From an uncultured Pseudomonadales bacterium (GTDB taxonomy: Bacteria > Patescibacteriota > Microgenomatia > UBA1400 > CAYNFZ01), in NCBI GenBank assembly GCA_964398525.1, contig CAYNMS010000008.1:1-46925 (forward strand): a stretch of 46,925 nucleotides of DNA, in the 5' to 3' direction. Both the position numbers and the translations under genes were made by a program. Shown here piece after piece: positions 1,642-13,241 of the stretch. Under the pieces are notes generated by a model that was not told the origin of the DNA, made no database searches, and worked only from the letters and a program-made list of their open reading frames with translations. The stretch's first letter is position 1. Each line of letters opens with the position of its first letter.

Positions 1642-3192
1642 TTATTTAGCAACTTCTTGGGCTCGAGTTTCACGAATGACAGTGACGGTAACCGTACCCG
1701 GATAGGTCATTTCGTTTCTGATGCGCTCTTTGATATCAAAGGCCATCTTTCTAACGGCTTCATCGTCAACTTTTTGGGGTTTGACGACAACACGGACTTC
1801 ACGGCCGGCTTGAAGAGCATAGGCTTCATCGACACCTTCATAGGAAGTAGCGATTTCTTCGAGTTTGTTGAGACGTTTGACGTATTCGTTATAGTTTTCA
1901 TATCGAGCACCGGGGCGGGCACCAGATATGGCATCGGCGACATAGACGAGAACGGCTTCCGAAGAAGAAAAGGGTTTGTCTTCATGGTGTTGCTCGACGC
2001 AGTCGATGACATCTTGCGGGATGTTGAATCTTTTGAGGAAATTAACCCCAAGCTCGACGTGACTGCCTTCTTCGTCGTGGATGACTTTACCGATGTCATG
2101 CAAAAGACAACCAAGGCGGACAATATCGGCATCAGCACCGACTTCTCTGGCGAGGGCGATACCTATTTTGGTTTCTTCTAAAGTATGGGTAATCATGTTC
2201 TGGCCATAGGAGAAGCGGTATTTAAATTCACCAAGCTTGGCCACAATTTCGCGAGGCAGATTGTAAACACCAACTGCGTGACAAAGCTTTTTACCCTCTT
2301 CAAACATGATTTTTTCGATGTCTTGACGGGCTTTGGCGACATACTCTTCGATGCGGGTAGGTTGGATACGCCCATCGGCAACTAGTCGTGAGAGGGAGAC
2401 TTTGGCGATTTCGCGGCGAACCGGATCGAAACTACTTAAGCGGACTTCACCGGGTGTTTCATCGAGATCGACGTCAACTCCGGTAGCCTGTTCAAAAGCA
2501 CGAATGTTGCGACCTTCTTTACCGATAATTCTCCCTTTACTGTCTTCTTGAGGAAGTTTAACGGTTGAGACGGTGTATTCGGCGACATGGTCGGTGGCTC
2601 CGTGTTTCAGAGCGTCGACAATAATCTCCCGGGCTTTATTGTCGGCTTCTTCTTTGGCTTTATCCTCGGCAGCGGTGATGGCTTTGGCCATGTCGACTTG
2701 TAGCCTTTTTTCGAGAGTGTTGAAGATGATTTGTTTGGCTTCTTCTTTATTGAGACCAGCGATTTCTTGAACCCGATCGGCATAGCGTTTTTTGAGTTTG
2801 TTTAACTCATCGAGCCTGACTTGAAGCGTATCTTGTTGTTCTTTGAGAAAACGTTCCCGGGCTTCGGTGGCAGCTTGGACACGGGCAAGATCGGTTTCTT
2901 TGCGGGAAAGATCAAGCTGTTTTTGGTTGAATTCGTTTTGACGGCGACGAGATTCTTCTTCAGCTTGTGATCGGATTTTGAGCGCTTGGTCTTTGGCTTC
3001 GAGAATTATTTCTCTAGATTTAGCCTCGGCTTCCCTTTTGGCCTGATTTAAAAGGGCTTGATGATCGATCTGGGGTTGGGGACGAGAAGGACGGTGACGG
3101 GGTTTACTGCGGCGTGGCGGTTTGGAGGGAGTGGTAATAACTGGTTTTTTCCCAGGTTGAAATACTCCTGAAAGAGTTTTGAAAAGTGACAT
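1642..3192 (-). CDS. rny: Ribonuclease Y
   Basis: 516 aa with a coiled-coil region, a KH motif (GRIIGKEGRNIRAFEQATGVDV) and an HD domain (LLHDIGK...EQHHE). Confidence 0.9.
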   Translation of the reverse strand: MSLFKTLSGVFQPGKKPVITTPSKPPRRSKPRHRPSRPQPQIDHQALLNQAKREAEAKSREIILEAKDQALKIRSQAEEESRRRQNEFNQKQLDLSRKETDLARVQAATEARERFLKEQQDTLQVRLDELNKLKKRYADRVQEIAGLNKEEAKQIIFNTLEKRLQVDMAKAITAAEDKAKEEADNKAREIIVDALKHGATDHVAEYTVSTVKLPQEDSKGRIIGKEGRNIRAFEQATGVDVDLDETPGEVRLSSFDPVRREIAKVSLSRLVADGRIQPTRIEEYVAKARQDIEKIMFEEGKKLCHAVGVYNLPREIVAKLGEFKYRFSYGQNMITHTLEETKIGIALAREVGADADIVRLGCLLHDIGKVIHDEEGSHVELGVNFLKRFNIPQDVIDCVEQHHEDKPFSSSEAVLVYVADAISGARPGARYENYNEYVKRLNKLEEIATSYEGVDEAYALQAGREVRVVVKPQKVDDEAVRKMAFDIKERIRNEMTYPGTVTVTVIRETRAQEVAK

Positions 3193-3372
3193 GATACCTT
3201 CCTAACGGAATATACATTAAATTCCAATGCTGGATATTGATATTTGATTGGAGATACAAACAGTCAACAAAAAAACGCAAATCAGGAGTGAGCGAGGTTA
3301 AACAGTTTGCGGGTAAATCATTAAAAACAAAAGTTACTTAATAGGTTAACTATCTGAATCTCTCGGGATATT

Positions 3373-3846
3373 TTACTCTTGGGCTAACCATTCGTCAATC
3401 GCAGCGGAGATGACAGAAGCGGTATAGCCCCTCTGGTAAAGGTAATTCTTGGCCTTGGCTTTGGTCTTGAAAAGGTTGGACTGTTTGAGCTTTGAAGCCC
3501 GTTTTTCAAGAAGCTTGACTGCGGAGGCAATTAGCTTGGATTGATCGGCGTTATTTAGATTTTGTAAGATAATTGGGTCCTCCACTCCAAGAAACTTTAG
3601 TTTTTGGCGAATAAAAGTAATTCCCTTGCCTTTGGAGATATAGCTGGTGACAAGTTGCGAGGCAAAAGCCTGATCATCCAAAAGCCCCATAGATTCAAGA
3701 TCGGCAACGATAGCGTCAATCTGGTCGGCTTGGGTGGTTTTGGAGCTTAAATACCGCTTCATTTCAGAGATGGAGCGGGAGCGGAATTTTAGATACCCGA
3801 CGGCCAGGTTAAGCAGTCTGGCTCTTGGGTTGGGATTGTTTGGCAT
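3373..3846 (-). CDS. recX: Recombination regulator RecX
   Basis: 157 aa with a RecX-like N-terminus ([19 protein letters not shown]), immediately downstream of recA. Confidence 0.8.
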
Positions 3847-4882
3847 GAATTTTTTCCCGAACCTTTTTCTCGATTTCTTCCATGAGCTTGGGCTTTTCCT
3901 CTAAGACAGCTTTGGCCCCTTCGCGGCCTTGAGCTAAAACTTCACCTTGGTACTTAAAGAAACTACCGGATTTTTCGATAACATCATGTTCGACGGCAAC
4001 GTCGACTATACCGCCAGATTTGGAAATGCCAGAGACGTTCATGATGTCGAATTCGGCAATTTTAAATGGTGGGGCGATTTTGTTTTTGACAACTTTGGCC
4101 CGGTGACGTGAGCCGACGATTTCGTCGCCATCTTGAATGTTGCCGATTTTACGCATATCGATTCTGACTGAGGCGTAGAACTTGAGAGCTTGGCCGCCAG
4201 TAGTAGTTTCGGGATTGCCAAACATAACGCCGATTTTCATACGCAGTTGGTTGGTAAAAATGACAACGGTTTTAGAGCGATTGATGGCACCGGCTAATTT
4301 GCGCATAGCTTGACTCATGAGCCGAGCCTGAAGACCGATAATGGAATCCCCCATCTCGCCTTCGATTTCAGCTTTGGGAACAAGGGCGGCGACCGAGTCG
4401 ATAACTAGGACGTCGATACCACCGGATCTGATCAGGGTTTCGGCGATTTCTAGTGCTTGCTCGCCGCTGTCAGGTTGAGACATGAGAAGACTGTCGAGAT
4501 TAACCCCGATGGCTTTGGCTCGAACAGGATCGAGGGCATGTTCGGCATCGATGAAAGCAGCGTCACCGCCTTTTTTCTGGGCTTCGGCGATGATATGAAG
4601 ACACAGGGTAGTTTTGCCGGAGGCTTCGGGTCCATAGATTTCCACGATACGGCCTCGAGGAACACCGCCGGCACCGAGGGCTAAGTCTAGGGCAAGGGAA
4701 CCGGTGGGAACGGTGGCAATATTTTTAAGAAGGGCAGCCTGATCGCCAAGACGCATAATGGAACCGGTACCGAATTGTTTTTCAATTTGTTGCATGGCAA
4801 TTTTGACGGCTTCGACACGCTGGCTATCACTGGGGTTTGGTTGTGGCATGACTACCTCTTGGTTTTTCTTAGGTCGACCCAT
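3809..4882 (-). CDS. recA: Recombinase RecA
   Basis: Walker A motif [10 protein letters not shown] plus FIDAEHALD and [15 protein letters not shown] lies upstream of the ATG at 4882. An internal ATG (MPQPNP...) is an alternative start. Confidence 0.95.
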
Positions 4883-5019: not shown

Positions 5020-5036
5020 AAAAATCTCGGCCAAAA

Positions 5037-5107
5037 CGGGGTGTAGTATAGTGGTAGTATTTACGCATGGGGTGCGTAAGGTACAGGTTCGATTCCTGTC
5101 ACCCCGA
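5037..5107 (+). tRNA. tRNA-Pro (anticodon GGG)
   Basis: Folded by hand as a 71-nt cloverleaf: acceptor CGGGGTG/CACCCCG, anticodon stem TACGC/GCGTA, loop AT-GGG-GT with G37, T arm ACAGG-TTCGATT-CCTGT, discriminator A. C1-G72 is typical of tRNA-Pro. No CCA is encoded. Confidence 0.9.
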
Positions 5108-5611
5108 CACTTCGATTTCGCAAGGCGAATGAGAAGTGAGCTGAGCCTGCTGAAGCTCTGAACTATTTGAAGAGCCGAAGCTCATCTCACTAGCTTTGCT
5201 TCACTCAGTGTCTTCGACTCTTTGTTTTCGATTTTTGCTCAGGGTGTACGATGTTTCAACAAGCTCAACATCTTTGACCAATTATTGAATGAGTCGAAGA
5301 GCCTCGAGCGAAACGGGGTGAAGCCTAGAGGCACAGATATTGACTCCACTTAGAGTCTACCCCCTTTCTTATTTTGATTCGGTGGCTTGAGAAGTTGCAA
5401 CTTAGATTAGATTAAATCTATGTATGGCAATTGTGTGATTGGTTTAAATGTTTGCGCTAGCAATAAATATTGACAGAATTATCTCTCTCTTTAAGCTGAA
5501 AAGGAATCGGTCTCAAATTGTCTGTATTTGGTCTGTGATTTTGGGTAACACTTAACTACAGTGAAATATTCCCATGTTGAGAAGCTAGAAAAATCTAATT
5601 TGAGGATAAAT

Positions 5612-5620
5612 TGATATAAT
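5612..5620 (+). promoter_or_regulatory. Extended -10 element TGATATAAT overlapping the first ATG of the 216-aa ORF
   Basis: TGn+TATAAT read directly in the sequence. If it is used, the real start codon would be the ATG at 5640. Confidence 0.3.
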
Positions 5621-6269
5621 GCTTGTCCTAATTTTTGATATGGAAAAAAAATTAAAATTAAATTTGGGGGAAGTTGGATTCCCCCATGCTCATAGATTTA
5701 CTTCCTCTACTGGAATACCTGTACCTTGGAAGGGCTGTGATGGGGTCATTCTTCCCAGACTGATTATTTTTGAAGAGCCAGGAAGTGATTATGACATTCA
5801 TCATGAAATTTACTCAGAAAGAGTTAGGAACTGTAATGGAGAAATTTATTATGGTGATATCTATAAGCCGGAGTCTTTAGAGGAAATTCCACAAATGGGA
5901 CTGCTAGTTCTTGAGAATGTGGTTACAGATCCAGGACAAATCCAGAAAGATTGGTATGGCTTAATTAGATTTTTGGACTCTAAGATAGCACCTGGTGGAC
6001 TTGTATTATTTTCTGATCATATTTATCCTGGATCCTTATATCTTGGGGTTCCCCATGAGGAAATTAGAAAAGAAGTAAGTCAAAGTGACTCATTTGAGGT
6101 ATTGTATTTTGATCCACTGGAAAAGGGGACAGTTGAAGATCACACAAGAGCTCTGAATAATTGTAAAGAAATACTCAATTCTTTGGGCATGATGGATCAA
6201 GCACTCGATTCAGGACTTGATGAATTGCATAAAGTTAATTGGCATTGGTTGATATTGCAGAAAAAGTAG
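5619..6269 (+). CDS. Hypothetical protein (orphan) with weak class I methyltransferase-like motifs
   Basis: 216-aa ORF. IIFEEPGSDYD, LLVLENVV and KIAPGGLVLFSD resemble SAM-methyltransferase motifs I, IV and post-IV. This is motif-level resemblance only. Confidence 0.5.
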   Translation: MLVLIFDMEKKLKLNLGEVGFPHAHRFTSSTGIPVPWKGCDGVILPRLIIFEEPGSDYDIHHEIYSERVRNCNGEIYYGDIYKPESLEEIPQMGLLVLENVVTDPGQIQKDWYGLIRFLDSKIAPGGLVLFSDHIYPGSLYLGVPHEEIRKEVSQSDSFEVLYFDPLEKGTVEDHTRALNNCKEILNSLGMMDQALDSGLDELHKVNWHWLILQKK

Positions 6270-6292
6270 GCATTACTTTCCTTAATAATAAC

Positions 6293-6361
6293 CGACAAGA
6301 GTTTCTCCTGAGGGGATTTTTGATGTCCTTATACAAAAGTAGAATCTCTTGAGAAATCTGG
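6293..6361. repeat. Island repeat type C, copy 1
   Basis: 47 of 69 positions identical to 7041..7109 in an ungapped hand alignment. Shared blocks are AGGGGATTTTTG, AAGTAG and CTCTTGAG. Confidence 0.7.
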
Positions 6362-6364
6362 TTA

Positions 6365-6640
6365 TTACTTGTTCTTAAATTCTCGATCCACGCTTTGACT
6401 CAGAAACATTTTCATCAGAGATTGGTACGGCACATCTTTTTTATTAGCAAGTTGTTTAATTCTCATCAACAAATGAGACGGCAACCTTAAGGAAATAGAT
6501 TCTGTTGAAGGTTTTAAGTTTGATAAGTCTAATTCTACTGACTTTGACCAATCAACATAATCAGTTGAATCATGAGTTGCCCAAAACTCTCGCTCTTCAT
6601 CTTCGTTTTTGAATTGTGGAATTGGTTTAAGCTTTGTCAT
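6365..6640 (-). CDS. brnA: BrnA-type antitoxin (CopG/RHH-like)
   Basis: 91 aa. FKNEDEEREFWATHDSTDYVDW followed by a C-terminal RHH-like segment. Overlaps brnT by 14 nt. Confidence 0.8.
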   Translation of the reverse strand: MTKLKPIPQFKNEDEEREFWATHDSTDYVDWSKSVELDLSNLKPSTESISLRLPSHLLMRIKQLANKKDVPYQSLMKMFLSQSVDREFKNK

Positions 6641-6920
6641 AGATATTTTTCTCCTTTTTATTCATATCTCTTATGGAGATAATCCTAATTTTATTACTTC
6701 TGATTGTATATGAGACAAATAATTTACGATTATCATTTGTTTCCCCAAGAGCTTGAAAGCGCAATTCCTTTCCTGAGTGCTTTTCATCTAATACTGAAAG
6801 AAAAGGCTTATTAAAGAAAACTTCTTCAGCTTCCTTTGCGTCTACTTTATGTTTCTGCCAGTTTTTATCTTTGTTTCCAGTATCCCATTCAAAAGTAATT
6901 GGCCTCGGTAATTTCTTCAT
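6627..6920 (-). CDS. brnT: BrnT-type ribonuclease toxin (DUF497)
   Basis: FEWDTGNKDKNWQKHKVDAKEAEEVF signature. Start trimmed to MKKLPRP at 6920, because the track's upstream extension to 6983 runs through the non-coding repeat also found at 10218..10266. Confidence 0.8.
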   Translation of the reverse strand: MKKLPRPITFEWDTGNKDKNWQKHKVDAKEAEEVFFNKPFLSVLDEKHSGKELRFQALGETNDNRKLFVSYTIRSNKIRIISIRDMNKKEKNIYDKA

Positions 6921-6966
6921 TGCATTTAGTATATTATGATAATATACTGATGTCAATTTGCTATAG

Positions 6967-7016
6967 TTCCGAATTAAACACAAAGGTTCTACTTTAGTCC
7001 TACGCTAAGGCTTCGG
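6967..7016. repeat. Island repeat type A, copy 1
   Basis: Aligns with 10218..10266. The core AAAGGTTCTACTTTAGTCCTACGCT is identical over 25 nt (6982..7006 versus 10232..10256). Confidence 0.85.
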
Positions 7017-7040
7017 AATTACACAGTCGGTCACAATATT

Positions 7041-7109
7041 CGACTCATGATTCTCTCCAGGGGATTTTTGGAACTATTGTACATAAGTAGGACCTCTTGA
7101 GGGATCCAG
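7041..7109. repeat. Island repeat type C, copy 2
   Basis: See 6293..6361. It contains AAGTAGGACCT (7085..7095), whose reverse complement matches 10 of 11 positions of AGGTTCTACTT (6984..6994). Confidence 0.7.
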
Positions 7110-7133
7110 CGACATTTCTGATAATATCAATAT

Positions 7134-8276
7134 ATGTCAGATTCAAGCGAAGGTGTGCCCGCATCCTTAAGAGATAAAATTGTTAGAAGTATTGATGGTC
7201 AAAAGCCAAGCTGGAAAAATGTTTTGTCAAGAAAAGTTGTTGGACGAAGAAGTTCAGTAGATAGTTACCCTGAAAAGATCGAGGAGATACCTGCTACGGC
7301 ACCAGCTCAAGAGCAGTCAACTTCGACTGAAATTAACTTTTCTCCCATAATAGAGTACTTTTATGAGCTAGGGAAAAAGCCGTTAGTCTCCCTAGAGAAA
7401 ATGATTGGTATTCCTGAGGGAAGTCGTTCACAAGGCAATGTTATTGCTAATTTAGTGGCTAATAATTGTTTTGAGGAAGAGACGGAAACAAGCTTTATTG
7501 AACAAGGTTTAGATGGTCACCTAATTGGTGTGGGAGCTGCAAGCATTTTCTGTATGATTGAAGGATTTAGTGAATGTCAATCATTTACCGGTATTGATGT
7601 TCATCCTAGCCCCGTTGCTATTGGAAGAGTTATTACTGAATTACTGGGTGAGAATGACACCTTTGAAGATTTTTTTACTTCGTTAAGTGACGAAGACAAG
7701 CTCAAAGACAAACTAGAAGAGATGGGTTTACCAGAGGGATATTTTGATGAAACTGCACAGAGTGTTAAAGATGCAATTACTCAATACAATAAAGTCAAAA
7801 GCAGCTACCCAGGAATGCGAGCAGAGGGATTTAATGTTCACAATATGGACAAGAAAAATCTCTTTCCACTCAAGTCTATAGAGAGGCATTATAAAGAATT
7901 CATGAACTTAGCTAGATCAGGCAATATGCATTTTATCCAGGCAGATTTCCTTGATTCAACTGTATGGAGGGGCTTAAATCGAGCCGCTCCACAAATAAAA
8001 GATGCTAATAATTTAATATTTTGCAGTAATGCTATTGATCATGAATTCCGATCAAGGTTCGAGAAGTGGGACCAATGGTCTCAAAACGGAAAAGTTAATA
8101 TGGCAATCTCTGAACAAGTTGCTCTTGGAGGAGCGACTGCTTTTAACTTTGCAGATTGGGAATCCAGTAGATTCGTATTCACTTTGACAAGTCTAAGATA
8201 CGAGTTACAGCTAACAGATGAACCACCTGTTTATGGCTATGATGAACAACAAGGTCGTCCAACTCTTATTAACTAA
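7134..8276 (+). CDS. Hypothetical protein (orphan): disordered N-terminus plus divergent Rossmann/SAM-methyltransferase-like domain
   Basis: 380-aa ORF. LIGVGAASIF...FTGIDVHPSPVAI...MHFIQADFLD...NLIFCSNAIDHEF occur in the order of class I methyltransferase motifs I, II, III and IV. Confidence 0.55.
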   Translation: MSDSSEGVPASLRDKIVRSIDGQKPSWKNVLSRKVVGRRSSVDSYPEKIEEIPATAPAQEQSTSTEINFSPIIEYFYELGKKPLVSLEKMIGIPEGSRSQGNVIANLVANNCFEEETETSFIEQGLDGHLIGVGAASIFCMIEGFSECQSFTGIDVHPSPVAIGRVITELLGENDTFEDFFTSLSDEDKLKDKLEEMGLPEGYFDETAQSVKDAITQYNKVKSSYPGMRAEGFNVHNMDKKNLFPLKSIERHYKEFMNLARSGNMHFIQADFLDSTVWRGLNRAAPQIKDANNLIFCSNAIDHEFRSRFEKWDQWSQNGKVNMAISEQVALGGATAFNFADWESSRFVFTLTSLRYELQLTDEPPVYGYDEQQGRPTLIN

Positions 8277-8321
8277 AACTTATTCCCGTACTGAATTCCG
8301 AACCGGCTTGCGTATGAAGAG

Positions 8322-8383
8322 TTCTACCCCTTCGACTAACTGCGCTCGCTTAGGATCTATGACTTTCGTTCACGATATTCGAC
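8322..8383. repeat. Island repeat type B, copy 1
   Basis: 57 of 62 nt identical to 9769..9830 by hand alignment. Starts 45 nt after the stop of the 380-aa ORF. Confidence 0.9.
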
Positions 8384-8494
8384 TCAGAGAATAGATTAAG
8401 AATTCTCGATCTGGGATTTGGAAAATTTGATTTTTACCCAAATGTTGTGTGAAATTTTCATTCTTGAGGAAAGACTTTAAGAGGAGATTGGAAA

Positions 8495-9733
8495 TTGAGC
8501 CTCTTGAGGAATGTTAATTTGGCATATAATATTTTGGTGAAAACTAGATCTCTTAAAAGTAATCTTCAAGTTGCATATTTCTTATCATTTGTTAGTCAGT
8601 TATTTTTTCCAATCGCCATTTGGTTGTTTTTTTACTCCAAGTTTTTGGATTTTAAACAAATCGCTCTAATGACTGCTGTGGGAAGTATCGCCACCATACT
8701 TTTTGAAATCCCAACAGGTGCTTTTGCCGATATTGTGGGCAGGAAAAAAGCCATCGTATTATCTTATTTATTGTTTGCTGTGAGTATGTTGCTGACAGCA
8801 TATTCTCAAACTTTTATAGTCTTTGTTTTATTGGGAGTGGCGAGCGCTCTGGTTAATGCTTTGTATTCTGGAAGTCTTGAAGCACTTGTTTATGACACCT
8901 TAAAAGAGTCAGGGAGAGAAGTAGAATATGACCAAGTGATTTCTAGGATGGATGCTATCGCATGGTTGGGCCTGTTCGTGGGTTCAGTAACGGGAGGGTT
9001 TTTGTTTGCAGTTTCTTACAGATTACCTTTTTTAGCACAGGCTTTGATTACATTTCTGGCTTCTATTTTTGCACTTAAACTAAGCGAGCCTTCTATTGAT
9101 TCAGAGAAACATAAGTTGAGCGACTTTGTTGTTCAAAACACTAAGGGATTCAGAGAACTGTTTCACAGTCGAGCAACTACTAGATTGGTTATAATTTTTA
9201 TTACTATTGGTGCAGGTTATGATATTGCTGCTTCGATTCTTGGAATTTCTCAGGCAAAAGAATATGGAATTGCTCCTGAGATTGTGGGAATCATTTTTGC
9301 AGCCGGATATATCATTTCAGCATTAGCGTCTCATTTTTATCCAATGCTGAGATTAGTCTTAAATAACAAGGCAATTTTGTTGGTTGCTGTTACAGCTTTG
9401 CTTTCAAGCTTTTTGCTGGCTCAATTTGTTGGAGTTATGTTGGGAGCTGGATTAATTATTCTTCGGATTTCAAGTTCTACCTTGTTTAGAAATACTAGGT
9501 CAGTAATGCTAAATCCTTTCTTTTCTTCCAAAAATCGAGCTACCGCACTATCAACCATAAATTTGTTAACAATACTTCCCTACGCGTTGCTGGCTTATTT
9601 CATTGGAGACTATATGGATAAATCATCCCCAAATTCATTTGCTTTTCTTTTGGGCATAGGAATTGCATTTTCTCTATTGTTTACAGAAATACTTTTCTGG
9701 TTCGTTGAGAGATCAAAAAGATCTATTAATTAG
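8495..9733 (+). CDS. MFS transporter
   Basis: 412 aa with about 12 hydrophobic segments and the MFS loop motif GAFADIVGRKKA. TTG start preceded by GAGGAG. Confidence 0.85.
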   Translation: MSLLRNVNLAYNILVKTRSLKSNLQVAYFLSFVSQLFFPIAIWLFFYSKFLDFKQIALMTAVGSIATILFEIPTGAFADIVGRKKAIVLSYLLFAVSMLLTAYSQTFIVFVLLGVASALVNALYSGSLEALVYDTLKESGREVEYDQVISRMDAIAWLGLFVGSVTGGFLFAVSYRLPFLAQALITFLASIFALKLSEPSIDSEKHKLSDFVVQNTKGFRELFHSRATTRLVIIFITIGAGYDIAASILGISQAKEYGIAPEIVGIIFAAGYIISALASHFYPMLRLVLNNKAILLVAVTALLSSFLLAQFVGVMLGAGLIILRISSSTLFRNTRSVMLNPFFSSKNRATALSTINLLTILPYALLAYFIGDYMDKSSPNSFAFLLGIGIAFSLLFTEILFWFVERSKRSIN

Positions 9734-9768
9734 TTTAGTCTGGTAGACAGCCCAACTTAACTCAAATA

Positions 9769-9830
9769 TTCTACCCTTTCGACTCATTGCGCTCGCTCAG
9801 GATCTATGACTTTCGTTCACAATATTCGAC
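9769..9830. repeat. Island repeat type B, copy 2
   Basis: 57 of 62 nt identical to 8322..8383. Starts 35 nt after the MFS stop. Confidence 0.9.
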
Positions 9831-9889
9831 AGATCTCCTAAGGACTTTCAATTCTAATGCGAAATTGATAGAATCAAATCCTGACAGAC

Positions 9890-10207
9890 ATGCTTTTAGT
9901 GTATATAACCTGCGACAGTGTGGACCAAGCAAAAGGTATTGCTAATCATTTAATGGATAAGAGACTTTGTGCTTGTGTGAATATATTCCCAGAAATGCAA
10001 CCAATGTTCTTTTGGCCACCAAAGTCGGGCAAAATCGATGTGAGTAAAGAAGTGGTATTGATTGCCAAAACGGTTGAATCAAAATATCAGGAGTTGGAGA
10101 AAGAAGTGACTAAAATTCATAGTTACGAAGTGCCTTGTATCTTTGCCATTCCGGTGACCCACGTGGCCAAATCTTATTACGACTGGTTAGTTGGAGAAAT
10201 GGAATAG
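9890..10207 (+). CDS. cutA: Divalent-cation tolerance protein CutA
   Basis: 105 aa. RLCACVNIFP...FFW...VLIAKT...IHSYEVPCIFAIPV...YYDWL matches the CutA1 pattern. Confidence 0.85.
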   Translation: MLLVYITCDSVDQAKGIANHLMDKRLCACVNIFPEMQPMFFWPPKSGKIDVSKEVVLIAKTVESKYQELEKEVTKIHSYEVPCIFAIPVTHVAKSYYDWLVGEME

Positions 10208-10217
10208 GTTTCTCATC

Positions 10218-10266
10218 TTCGAACTAAACAAAAAGGTTCTACTTTAGTCCTACGCTGAAGCTTCGT
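10218..10266. repeat. Island repeat type A, copy 2
   Basis: See 6967..7016. Starts 10 nt after the cutA stop. Confidence 0.85.
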
Positions 10267-10297
10267 AAGGGCAATGCAATATCCGACCCTGTTTGAA

Positions 10298-10321
10298 ATG
10301 ACCCTAGGAAGGGTCATTTTT
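10298..10321 (+). terminator. Rho-independent terminator after cutA (ATGACCCT-AGGA-AGGGTCAT-TTTT)
   Basis: Perfect 8-bp stem, 4-nt loop and T run, read directly. Confidence 0.7.
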
Positions 10322-10467
10322 GTCTGGTACTTTCAGTTCTTTTAGAATGTGTTGTGAATTATTGCTTCTTGAGGAACTTTTTTTGAAAGGCTACTGGAAT
10401 CGAACCCTTCGAGAACACTTATCCCTAAACAATACCAAAAAGTGAAGAGAATTTTTCTGGGTTGAAA

Positions 10468-10815
10468 CTAAGTTTGTGGGTTCAACAAATGGTTCCATCC
10501 TTCTCTTTGTCTTTCGTCCAAATACAATCTGTGATAATTGCCAGCTTGAGTAACAATAAAAGGCTCGCTATCCCAAGATAGATAGAGATCCTCTTTTCTT
10601 TGTCGGGCCAAGTCTTTCATTGGTTCAACTATCAGACTAATTTGATCGCCTGCCATGACTTCCGAAACAATAGGGTCTTCTGAAGTCCCATCTCCTCTCA
10701 TTTTAATGCTTCGACCCTCTGACTCGTTAAACAGAAAATACTCTCTGTACTTAGAGTCTAATTTTTGAGTCAGTACTTGATCAATAATCCATCTTGGTGA
10801 TTCAATTGATCTCAT
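10468..10815 (-). CDS. Hypothetical protein (orphan)
   Basis: 115-aa ORF with no recognisable motif. It is the only long ORF in its region. Confidence 0.45.
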   Translation of the reverse strand: MRSIESPRWIIDQVLTQKLDSKYREYFLFNESEGRSIKMRGDGTSEDPIVSEVMAGDQISLIVEPMKDLARQRKEDLYLSWDSEPFIVTQAGNYHRLYLDERQREGWNHLLNPQT

Positions 10816-10942
10816 AAATAATTTCAGTTAAATAGTAATTGATGCATCAAAGTATATCATTCATACGTATCCAAAATCATGCTGAACTCGCCGGGTTTAT
10901 TCTGAATCAAATTATCAAATAAGGTCTTCTTTCATACACTAG

Positions 10943-11155
10943 CCTAGACAAAACAAGTCTGCTATTAGGCCTTTATTTATTTGGTTTCGCGGGCCTGAGA
11001 TAATTGAAAAAAGTTCTCCTAACTCAATTGCTTTTTTATTAGGTGCGGATATAGTGTTTGCTTTAATGCTAGAAAACGTAGTTTTCTGGTTTATTAGCAG
11101 AACTAGGAAGATTTCTAAATTGCTTGATAGATTGAAGATAATGGGTATGTTGTGA
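10943..11155 (+). pseudogene. 3' remnant of an MFS transporter paralog
   Basis: Hand translation gives ...EKSSPNSIAFLLGADIVFALMLENVVFWFISRTRKISK...*. This aligns with the C-terminus of the 8495..9733 protein (DKSSPNSFAFLLGIGIAFSLLFTEILFWFVERSKRSIN), 16 of 35 identical. There is a TAG upstream at 10940 and no start or N-terminal domains. Confidence 0.65.
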
Positions 11156-12491: not shown

Positions 12492-12926
12492 ATGAAAATT
12501 TCTAAAGCACTGGTGGCGCCAATTAACAATGAAGGACAGATTCTGTTGCAGGATAGGGAAGGGTTTTTGCCTCCGCCGTGGGGATATTTTGGGGGATCTG
12601 TAGAAAAAGGAGAAACGACAATAGAGGCAGCTATTAGAGAAATTGAAGAAGAGTTGGGAGTGAAGTTGAAAACCGGAGATTTGATGGAGGTAGGTAAATT
12701 TGTAGCCAGACTTGAAGGTGGAAAAGAGATTGTGAACTTTGTATATATTTGGAGGATTAACCATAAGCTTGATGAATTGAAGTTAAATGAGGGAAAAGCG
12801 ATGAAATATGTAAGTTTTGATGAGGCAAAGAGGTTACTCACATTTGGAGCGGATAAAGAGATTTTGGAGGCGGTGAAAAAGATGGTGGGATCAAAAAAAG
12901 ATAAATTGCCAGAGGATTCGATCTAG
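12492..12926 (+). CDS. NUDIX hydrolase
   Basis: Nudix box GGSVEKGETTIEAAIREIEEELG. Confidence 0.85.
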   Translation: MKISKALVAPINNEGQILLQDREGFLPPPWGYFGGSVEKGETTIEAAIREIEEELGVKLKTGDLMEVGKFVARLEGGKEIVNFVYIWRINHKLDELKLNEGKAMKYVSFDEAKRLLTFGADKEILEAVKKMVGSKKDKLPEDSI

Positions 12927-13019
12927 CTGTCAGGTGAGAAGTAGATAAACTGAGAGTGAATTATCTTTGCGTTTTTATTACACTGTTGAGGAGATCAATA
13001 AGTAGTACAGGAGGAAGAC

Positions 13020-13241
13020 ATGAAGCTTCCAAAAAATATTTTGTTACTGTTGGCCGGACTCATGCTGTTGGCAGGATGTAATACGGTACCATCTGAAGAG
13101 ATGAATACCGAAACCGGAATAGAAACACAACAGGATCAAACTCAAGAAGTCGATTGGCAAACTATGGAAGAAGAGCAATATCAGGATGATATGGAAGCAG
13201 AACAAATGGAAAGCGAAGACGAAGTAATGATGGAACAGTAG
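13020..13241 (+). CDS. Small acidic Met/Glu/Asp/Gln-rich lipoprotein
   Basis: Signal peptide with lipobox LLAGC. The mature part is about 50 aa and strongly acidic. Confidence 0.6.
   Translation: MKLPKNILLLLAGLMLLAGCNTVPSEEMNTETGIETQQDQTQEVDWQTMEEEQYQDDMEAEQMESEDEVMMEQ

Follow-up and report, generated by a model that had tools for sequence, protein, structure and literature searches.

What are the short repeats, here called types A and B, that follow one gene after another in the gene-sparse stretch from tRNA-Pro to about position 10950 of a 46.9-kb stretch of DNA (the window)? The host of the window is a bacterium of the candidate phyla radiation (CPR; Patescibacteria) that occurs in metagenomes of bioreactors and activated sludge. 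Beyond the species, the closest RecA has 82% identity, and the named matches belong to Microgenomates or Patescibacteria. We propose that the locus is a site-specific cassette array that resembles an integron but has sites other than attC hairpins, an account that in our judgement stands about evenly between right and wrong. Types A and B, together with two short forms termed X0 and Sw, would then be the 3′ frame elements of six tandem single-gene cassettes starting at the 3′ end of tRNA-Pro, which we rate with the same even confidence. The observations behind this proposal are a modular anatomy with a single frame orientation; the gain, loss and replacement of whole cassettes at CGAC (+0–2 nt); homology of cutA that is limited to its open reading frame (ORF); frame types that recur across genera around unrelated cargo; and homogenisation of the elements within a genome.

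Repeated frames around single genes

Self-comparison of the window aligned the two type A copies, A1 (6970–7018) and A2 (10220–10268), at 44 of 49 positions (90%; E = 8e-10). As an initial annotation of this DNA had claimed, they share an identical 25-nt core, AAAGGTTCTACTTTAGTCCTACGCT, at 6982–7006 and 10232–10256. Beyond the block of about 49 nt A1 and A2 are dissimilar, and then both end in CAATAT(T/C)CGAC. The type B copies B1 (8322–8383) and B2 (9769–9830) are 92% identical over 62 nt, and all four A and B copies terminate in CACAATATTCGAC, CACGATATTCGAC or TGCAATATCCGAC (7032–7044, 8371–8383, 9818–9830 and 10275–10287). Types A and B are 68% identical to each other over about 80 nt, an alignment that has E = 0.12 by itself; we link them because they share their ends, their position after stop codons and short bridging forms. 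The earlier view that A and B converge on one 3′ motif as variants of one family is thereby supported. Their common architecture runs from a 5′ core, RTTCTAC, through a variable middle to ATAT(T/C)CGAC at the 3′ end. The middles of types A and B differ and measure 35–40 nt, while the short forms (X0, Sw and those of other genomes) have almost none. Within the window the A/B motifs are confined to 6.2–10.9 kb.

As seen in the self-comparison and in alignments, two kinds of repeated module alternate with the ORFs and define six units between tRNA-Pro and Sw, each composed of a 5′ module, cargo and a 3′ element (Table 1). Behind each co-oriented ORF, within 10–25 nt of the stop codon, stands an element of type A, type B or the short form, and all frames are on the + strand, including those around the reversed brnTA genes and the reversed ORF115. 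The 3′ element opens with the core AAAGGTTCTAC (ATTCTAC or GTTCTAC in type B), continues with a middle of 0–40 nt and closes with TTTCGTTCACAATATYCGAC, TTTCGTTCACAATATTCGAC or a variant. The 5′ module begins right after CGAC. It usually consists of a small hairpin with a T-run, such as follows most CGAC ends, and then of the promoter-like CTCTTGAGG and a −10 box. In type C modules the hairpin and T-run at the start are followed by CTCTTGAGRRA, 15–19 nt and a −10-like hexamer a few bases before ATG. Type D modules are about 100 nt long and have two TTGAG motifs; D1 and D2 align with L052, one of the L-numbered related loci that were fetched from relatives and strains.

The −10-like hexamers of C1 and D1 (7120–7136 and 8524–8539) lie only about 6–8 nt before ATG/GTG, a spacing suggestive of mRNAs with no leader or a very short one. 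For the MFS gene, translation may begin downstream of the annotated TTG start (8495).

Inside the 3′ elements, direct copies of TTCKAC occur twice in type A and three times in type B, and the 5′ core holds a small AAAG/CTTT dyad; a half-site logic built from these copies and this dyad is possible, though the pattern is suggestive only. In B1 (8331–8337) and B2 (9778–9784) an internal TTCGAC directly follows the 5′ core (GTTCTACCCCTTCGAC). One possible reading of type B is a minimal element and, beyond a 26-nt spacer, another element truncated at its 5′ side; type B may be the scar of an emptied cassette. No copies of type B besides B1 and B2 were detected in the four metagenome runs examined. 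Across nine runs, type A was found in its array copies and in few other contexts.

The history of the cargo bears on how these units were put together. CutA proteins at least 90% identical to that of unit 5 are encoded in several other CPR genomes, in ordinary operons without frames. At the DNA level the homology of cutA to other genomes covers 9867/9882–10206 only, that is, the ORF, whose ancestral ATG is now CTG. ORF380 has four homologues of 58–63% identity; L048 and L049 carry theirs in ordinary contexts, and L052 in another framed array. In the L052 array the ORF380 homologue is followed by an A-like element, AGAGGTTCACCTTTAGTCCTTGAG; a short element, AAAGGTTCTACTTTCGTTAATAATATCCGA, is present too, and 5′ modules of types C and D precede unrelated genes, among them an MNT/HEPN pair. 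The synteny of recA and tRNA-Pro is kept in relatives. In L014 the tRNA ends in ...CCCCGAC, and behind it come a D-like module with CTCTTGAGGAATG, ORF361 (361 amino acids, unrelated to ORF380) and the short element GAACTAAACACAAAAGTTCTACTTTCATTCACTAGATCCGAC (...ATCCGAC). In L013 and L017 an island of 1.3 kb ends with the terminal short element AAAACGTTCTACTTTCATTTACTAGATCCGAC. The terminal elements of L014 and L013 can be aligned with Sw, CTTTCATNCACTAG included, and the upstream TGCTGAACT is common to Sw and S14; no such element was present in L011, a RecA-anchored relative. Elements related to those of the window surround unrelated cargo in three CPR genomes at greater distance; the frame types are therefore older than the species and stand around different cargo.

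Table 1. Coordinates of the units between tRNA-Pro and Sw and of their flanks in the window (strand of a gene in brackets where it differs from that of its unit)
Feature	Position	Strand	5′ module	Cargo or content	3′ element or end
RNase Y, RecX, RecA	1642–4882	−		Gene order before tRNA-Pro	
tRNA-Pro(GGG)	5037–5108	+		ARAGORN, Rfam	CGAC 5105–5108, proximal array boundary
196-nt segment	5109–5304	+		Structured, non-coding; fold z = −3.6; 97% identical in L040	
Unit 1	5305–6296	+	D-like, about 5545–5618	ORF216, 5619–6269, no family	X0, 6261–6296, ends AACCGAC
Unit 2	6297–7044	+	C0, 6303–6361	brnA, 6365–6640 (−), Pfam CopG_antitoxin 1.5e-33; brnT, 6627–6920 (−), Pfam BrnT_toxin 4.9e-26, promoter-like site 6956–6928 (11/12 match)	A1, 6967–7044, ends TTCGAC
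Unit 3	7045–8383	+	C1, 7051–7133, TTGAGG-17-GATAAT	ORF380, 7134–8276, no family	B1, about 8296–8383
Unit 4	8384–9830	+	D1, 8384–8536	MFS transporter, 8495–9733, Pfam MFS_1 1.4e-24	B2, about 9750–9830
Unit 5	9831–10287	+	E, short, C-like, 9831–9889	cutA, 9890–10207, Pfam CutA1 6.7e-30	A2, 10217–10287, ends TCCGAC
Unit 6	10288–10949	+	D2, 10288–10420, hairpin 10297–10325	ORF115, 10468–10815 (−)	Sw, 10921–10949, AAGGTCTTCTTTCATACACTAGCCTAGAC
Distal genes	distal of about 10950			Exo_endo_phos, two NUDIX genes, DsbD, others, then ribosomal protein and rpoBC operons	

Units gained, lost and replaced between strains

Strain variants were read from assembled metagenome contigs of other runs that were placed on the locus. 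Contigs with the window's own RecA, BrnA or CutA mostly display the same gene order, and L039 is 100% identical to the window. At least seven independent contig junctions break at CGAC ± 2 nt. One contig joins 7046 to 10317 and skips 3270 nt, another joins 7044 to 6303 with ATACTA in between, and several loose contig ends start or stop exactly at 5104/5108, 7044 or 10287. The CGAC of these breakpoints is the same four bases that end tRNA-Pro, and variant contigs join other DNA exactly at that tRNA end.

A sister strain, represented by contigs L040, L043 and L045, has the order tRNA-Pro, 160-nt insert, 196-nt segment, GIY-YIG gene, Gp49/HTH toxin–antitoxin pair and element A′, followed by C0′ with brnA and brnT, element sisA, D2′ with ORF115, Sw and Exo_endo_phos. 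It has in common with the window the tRNA, the 196-nt segment, brnTA, ORF115 and the backbone. Two units (GIY-YIG and Gp49/HTH) stand in place of the single ORF216 unit, and ORF380, MFS and CutA are absent. The missing three units form a block with exact limits, ...CGAC TC to its left and TGTTTG to its right. Because sisA is A1-type right up to its CGAC, no crossover took place within the 49-nt homology of A1 and A2; the indel requires a precise event at YCGAC(+2), or else the 13–15-nt microhomology CAATATYCGACYC. The earlier idea that the elements mark the gain and loss of units has held, as both the indel and the replacement break at the CGAC end.

Divergence between window and sister is uneven. 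The brnAT ORFs have 6 differences in 550 nt, the ORF115 block has none in about 445 nt and the backbone is about 96% identical, whereas the junction elements are 78% (C0), about 90% (A1) and about 78% (D2) identical. Likewise, the cassette ORF blocks 6362–6912 and 10505–10953 are 99–100% identical to L045/L043, whereas the junction modules are 10–22% different, and a tract boundary is located inside ORF115 (10468–10504). This pattern points to a probable recent recombinational exchange between strains. Variants are also shared within each genome: A1 and A2 of the window both have GGTTCTAC, and A′ and sisA of the sister both have GGTTTTRC plus four further states, which indicates that the elements have been homogenised within a genome. 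Within-genome homogenisation is known for the attC sites of chromosomal integrons.

A second strain-variable spot was noted at 12877–13203 by comparison with L043. Some 330 nt are replaced there in the sister strain by about 900 nt with four small ORFs, including one for an HTH protein; the part lost holds most of ORF73 as well as the end of the second NUDIX gene. No A/B-like elements were noticed at this spot.

A proposed cassette array weighed against its rivals

In the mechanism that we envisage, the elements would serve as attachment sites of a site-specific recombinase encoded outside the window, which would exchange strands at or next to YCGAC. A cassette would be inserted 3′ of a resident YCGAC, either the tRNA end or the end of the previous cassette, so that the array would grow head to tail. 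The sites would function in duplex form or through direct repeats of TTCKAC, and not as folded attC hairpins. A further-reaching proposal, which we put forward only tentatively, is a capture system of CPR bacteria distinct from integrons, with a recombinase acting in trans, promoter-bearing single-gene cassettes added head to tail at the 3′ end of tRNA-Pro and asymmetric, non-hairpin sites (TTCTAC core, variable middle, YCGAC end) that are homogenised in each genome. Integrons are, to our knowledge, the only well-understood platform that stockpiles single-gene cassettes. If a second platform with other sites does exist, cassette arrays evolved more than once, and there is a new pair of site and recombinase to look for. 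How cassettes arise is still an open question, and cutA and ORF380, each known as an ordinary gene as well as in a framed cassette, offer unusually clean material on cassette origin. The bacteria concerned have tiny genomes and rely on hosts and gene exchange. A literature search retrieved no relevant paper on integrons or cassette arrays in CPR bacteria.

Besides those taken up below with the rivals, two known systems resemble the proposed array in part. The pdif modules of Acinetobacter plasmids, which depend on Xer, are likewise small gene modules between short sites with the recombinase encoded elsewhere. However, pdif sites are alternating 28-bp dyads of a XerC arm, a 6-bp spacer and a XerD arm, the two arms being 11 bp long and partly palindromic, whereas the elements described here are asymmetric, 30–95 nt long and all direct; inversion does not turn the left flank CACAATATTCGAC into the right flank TTCTCCTGAGG. 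Elements of the IS200/IS605 type share the asymmetric, non-inverted ends, the lack of a target-site duplication and insertion 3′ of a fixed tetranucleotide that is possibly identical to the element's last bases, a rule of insertion that would favour tandem arrays. Unlike them, the units here have no conserved subterminal hairpins at either end and no tnpA or tnpB, and they are not dispersed.

Several results weigh against a site-specific cassette array. Neither the window nor any fetched related locus yielded a recombinase gene, and ORF216, ORF380, ORF115, ORF361 of L014 and ORF502/ORF435 of L052 gave no convincing recombinase when compared with Pfam and PADLOC. Neither circular cassettes nor empty sites were seen among the assembled contigs, where rare forms could not show. 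The sites lack dyad symmetry and a significant single-strand fold and match no characterised type of recombinase site, and the folds of whole junctions are no better than those of shuffled sequences (z −1.65 to +0.7). On the + strand, CGAC is missing from the left border of the first cassette (5304/5305), and the terminator-like T-run hairpins are positioned beyond the proposed cassette border, on its far side. The single three-cassette indel may have arisen by microhomology-mediated deletion at CAATATYCGACYC. Finally, the known elements number about a dozen and come from five genomes, and pattern scans of GTDB, JGI and IMG/VR yielded no further family members: searches for the short element returned one chance match in GTDB genomes, only the L013 species and one chance match in JGI metagenomes, and nothing or chance coding matches in IMG/VR. 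A blastn comparison of the whole array with plasmids and phages gave no match, and counts of the hexamers TTCGAC and TTCTAC were uninformative owing to codon bias.

Alternatively, A/B and C/D could be regulatory intergenic modules, i.e. 3′ untranslated regions (UTRs), terminators and mobile promoters, and the strain differences could result from homologous or microhomology recombination after DNA uptake, with the modules as homology patches. We consider this explanation unlikely. The 5′ modules do resemble promoters (TTGAGG, 15–18 nt, GATAAT/TATAAT, then ATG) and are kept before unrelated genes. This recalls the promoter reuse described for putative mobile promoters of prokaryotes, in which homologous promoter-like modules precede unrelated genes; such mobile promoters, however, account for the 5′ modules only and leave the 3′ elements, the fixed orientation and the array unexplained. 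A T-run hairpin after most CGAC ends would suit terminators, yet the 3′ elements themselves have no terminator-like fold, and the insertion of the A or B middle destroys any fixed −35/−10 spacing. Frames that keep their orientation around reversed cargo (C0–brnAT–A1 and D2–ORF115–Sw) cannot be the promoter or 3′ UTR of that gene. Nor is type A confined to the 5′ UTR of brnT, given that A2 and A′ adjoin other genes and that the orientation of the elements is independent of the cargo. The mosaic divergence of the strains and the tract boundary inside ORF115 are typical of homologous recombination, recA is present and dprA occurs in relatives; yet the A1-type sequence of sisA to its very end excludes a crossover in the long A1/A2 homology, and the capture of cutA as a bare ORF would be left unexplained. 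Should the elements nevertheless prove regulatory, the locus would still illustrate clearly how genes turn over as modules at a tRNA gene of CPR bacteria.

Another explanation, to our mind quite improbable, is that the elements are decayed attachment (att) scars, partial 3′ ends of tRNA-Pro left by successive small integrase-bearing integrations whose content was mostly deleted later. The array begins at the tRNA end. In L040, directly 3′ of tRNA-Pro (equivalent to 5108/5109), an exact 18-nt copy of the tRNA 3′ end, GATTCCTGTCACCCCGAC, stands on either side of the sister strain's 160-nt insert, which looks like a remnant of a classical tRNA-targeted integrative element. Hence tRNA-targeted integration does occur at this locus, and the insert shows a second kind of insertion at tRNA-Pro. 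Such an 18-nt direct repeat of the tRNA exists only around this insert. The elements end in YCGAC as the tRNA does, and the core GGTTCTAC recalls the T-loop GGTTCGAT; statistically, however, neither the likeness between the 5′ core and the T-arm of the tRNA nor that between the short elements and the 3′ end of the tRNA is significant, 33–1917 of 2000 shuffles being as good in the latter case. A1/A2 and B1/B2 are mutually 90–92% identical, far above their likeness to the tRNA, and the distal Sw, S14 and S13 have only their YCGAC-like ends in common with it. The same element types are kept across genera, and the units are single ORFs trimmed to coding sequence, with no integrase fragment seen in them. 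Islands that accrete at tRNA genes are similar in starting exactly at the tRNA 3′ end, in having direct-repeat separators that share the terminal bases of the tRNA and, for the sister strain, in the 18-nt duplication. They differ in that the separators here are not significantly tRNA-derived and the modules are single trimmed ORFs of 0.45–1.4 kb; neither an integrase nor another mobility gene was identified in the array or in the sister array.

Could A and B be divergent attC sites of a classical integron array or of a cluster of attC sites lacking an integron-integrase (CALIN)? Sedentary arrays and CALINs are indeed alike in their head-to-tail, mostly single-ORF units with one site after each ORF in one orientation, in reversed toxin–antitoxin cassettes, in homogeneous sites, in strain-variable content and in ORF-trimmed cargo. 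The location of the elements also corresponds to that of attC, being 3′ of the cassette ORF, in one orientation, with the border at the 3′ end of the element after YCGAC. Nonetheless we judge this identity very improbable. In attC, imperfect inverted cores R″ (RYYYAAC) and R′ (GTTRRRY) as well as L″ and L′ pair in a folded single strand. An RYYYAAC-like heptamer (ACTTAAC) does lie at the 5′ side of B2. The element alignments contain no complementary attC cores, R″/R′ or L″/L′ inverted pairing is lacking, and A1, A2, B1 and B2 as single-stranded DNA of either strand fold no better than shuffled sequences (z −1.4 to +1.6). The borders lie after YCGAC instead of at G|TTRRRY, most units have their own promoter-like 5′ module of 60–150 nt, and the array abuts a tRNA and not intI/attI; no intI tyrosine recombinase was found in the window or the related loci.

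Hardly credible any longer is the original model of a foldable element akin to a miniature inverted-repeat transposable element (MITE), bounded by an 11-bp inverted repeat and present in full and half copies. The inverted repeat itself is there (AGGTTCTACTT at 6984–6994 against AAGTAGGACCT at 7085–7095, 10 of 11 positions), but it is marginal, with 17 of 300 junction shuffles holding an inverted 11-mer at least as good and with 7 matches to the 12-mer (up to 2 mismatches) in the window where 5.1 are expected. In the sister junction A′+C0′ the arms match at 7 of 11 positions without covariation, an outcome that the initial annotation had itself named as refuting its model. The region 6975–7110 does not fold better than shuffled sequence on either strand (z = −0.95 for + and −0.08 for −), no target-site duplication flanks the indel apart from the site itself, and the family is not dispersed as a MITE or REP would be, its motifs being confined to the array in the window and to few contexts in the nine metagenome runs, with B1 and B2 as the only copies of type B. 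The right arm lies within the 5′ module C1, and other copies lack it. What had been taken for a half site at 6293–6361 does contain an arm, AAGTAGAATCT (6338–6348, in C0), with 10 of 11 positions matching the A core, but the degenerate short 3′ element that precedes it (6261–6296) had been overlooked. Similarly, the copy at 10218 was correctly described as having the left arm only, without recognition that a different 5′ module, D2, follows it. A 7-bp stem in A1, TTCCGAA/TTCGGAA, was considered as well and rejected, as it is broken in A′ of the sister (TTCCAAA/TGCGGAA). The one good hairpin (10297–10325) looks like a bidirectional intrinsic terminator, and tRNA-Pro alone was matched by Rfam at gathering and E-value thresholds.

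Both edges of the array

The segment that follows tRNA-Pro (5109–5304) holds the inverted pair GTCTTCGACTC/GAGTCGAAGAG. Elsewhere, in a different metagenome contig, a short 3′ element takes the place of the tRNA before it, GGTTCTACTTTCGTTAATAATAT being joined directly to CGACACTTCG (in longer form, ...AATAATAT to CGACACTTCG). The segment may be an array entry site or a small RNA. At its end, 5303–5331 is 76% identical over 29 nt to 5026–5054, that is, to the 5′ end of tRNA-Pro and its upstream flank (CTCGAGCGAAACGGGGTGAAGCCTAGAGG); ARAGORN called no tRNA at 5303–5331, and the likeness may reflect a tRNA fragment or chance.

At the distal edge, 11003–11150 is a frame-readable remnant resembling the C terminus of the cassette MFS protein (63% to 9614–9731), with no B element after it. 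It suggests that an older MFS gene may have been truncated at this edge.

In L012 and L013, bAvd/23S_rRNA_IVP genes are located near the recA–RNase Y block; bAvd proteins are accessory proteins of diversity-generating retroelements. In the same two loci a small GIY-YIG gene adjoins tRNA-Pro, and a gene of this type is a cassette in the sister strain.

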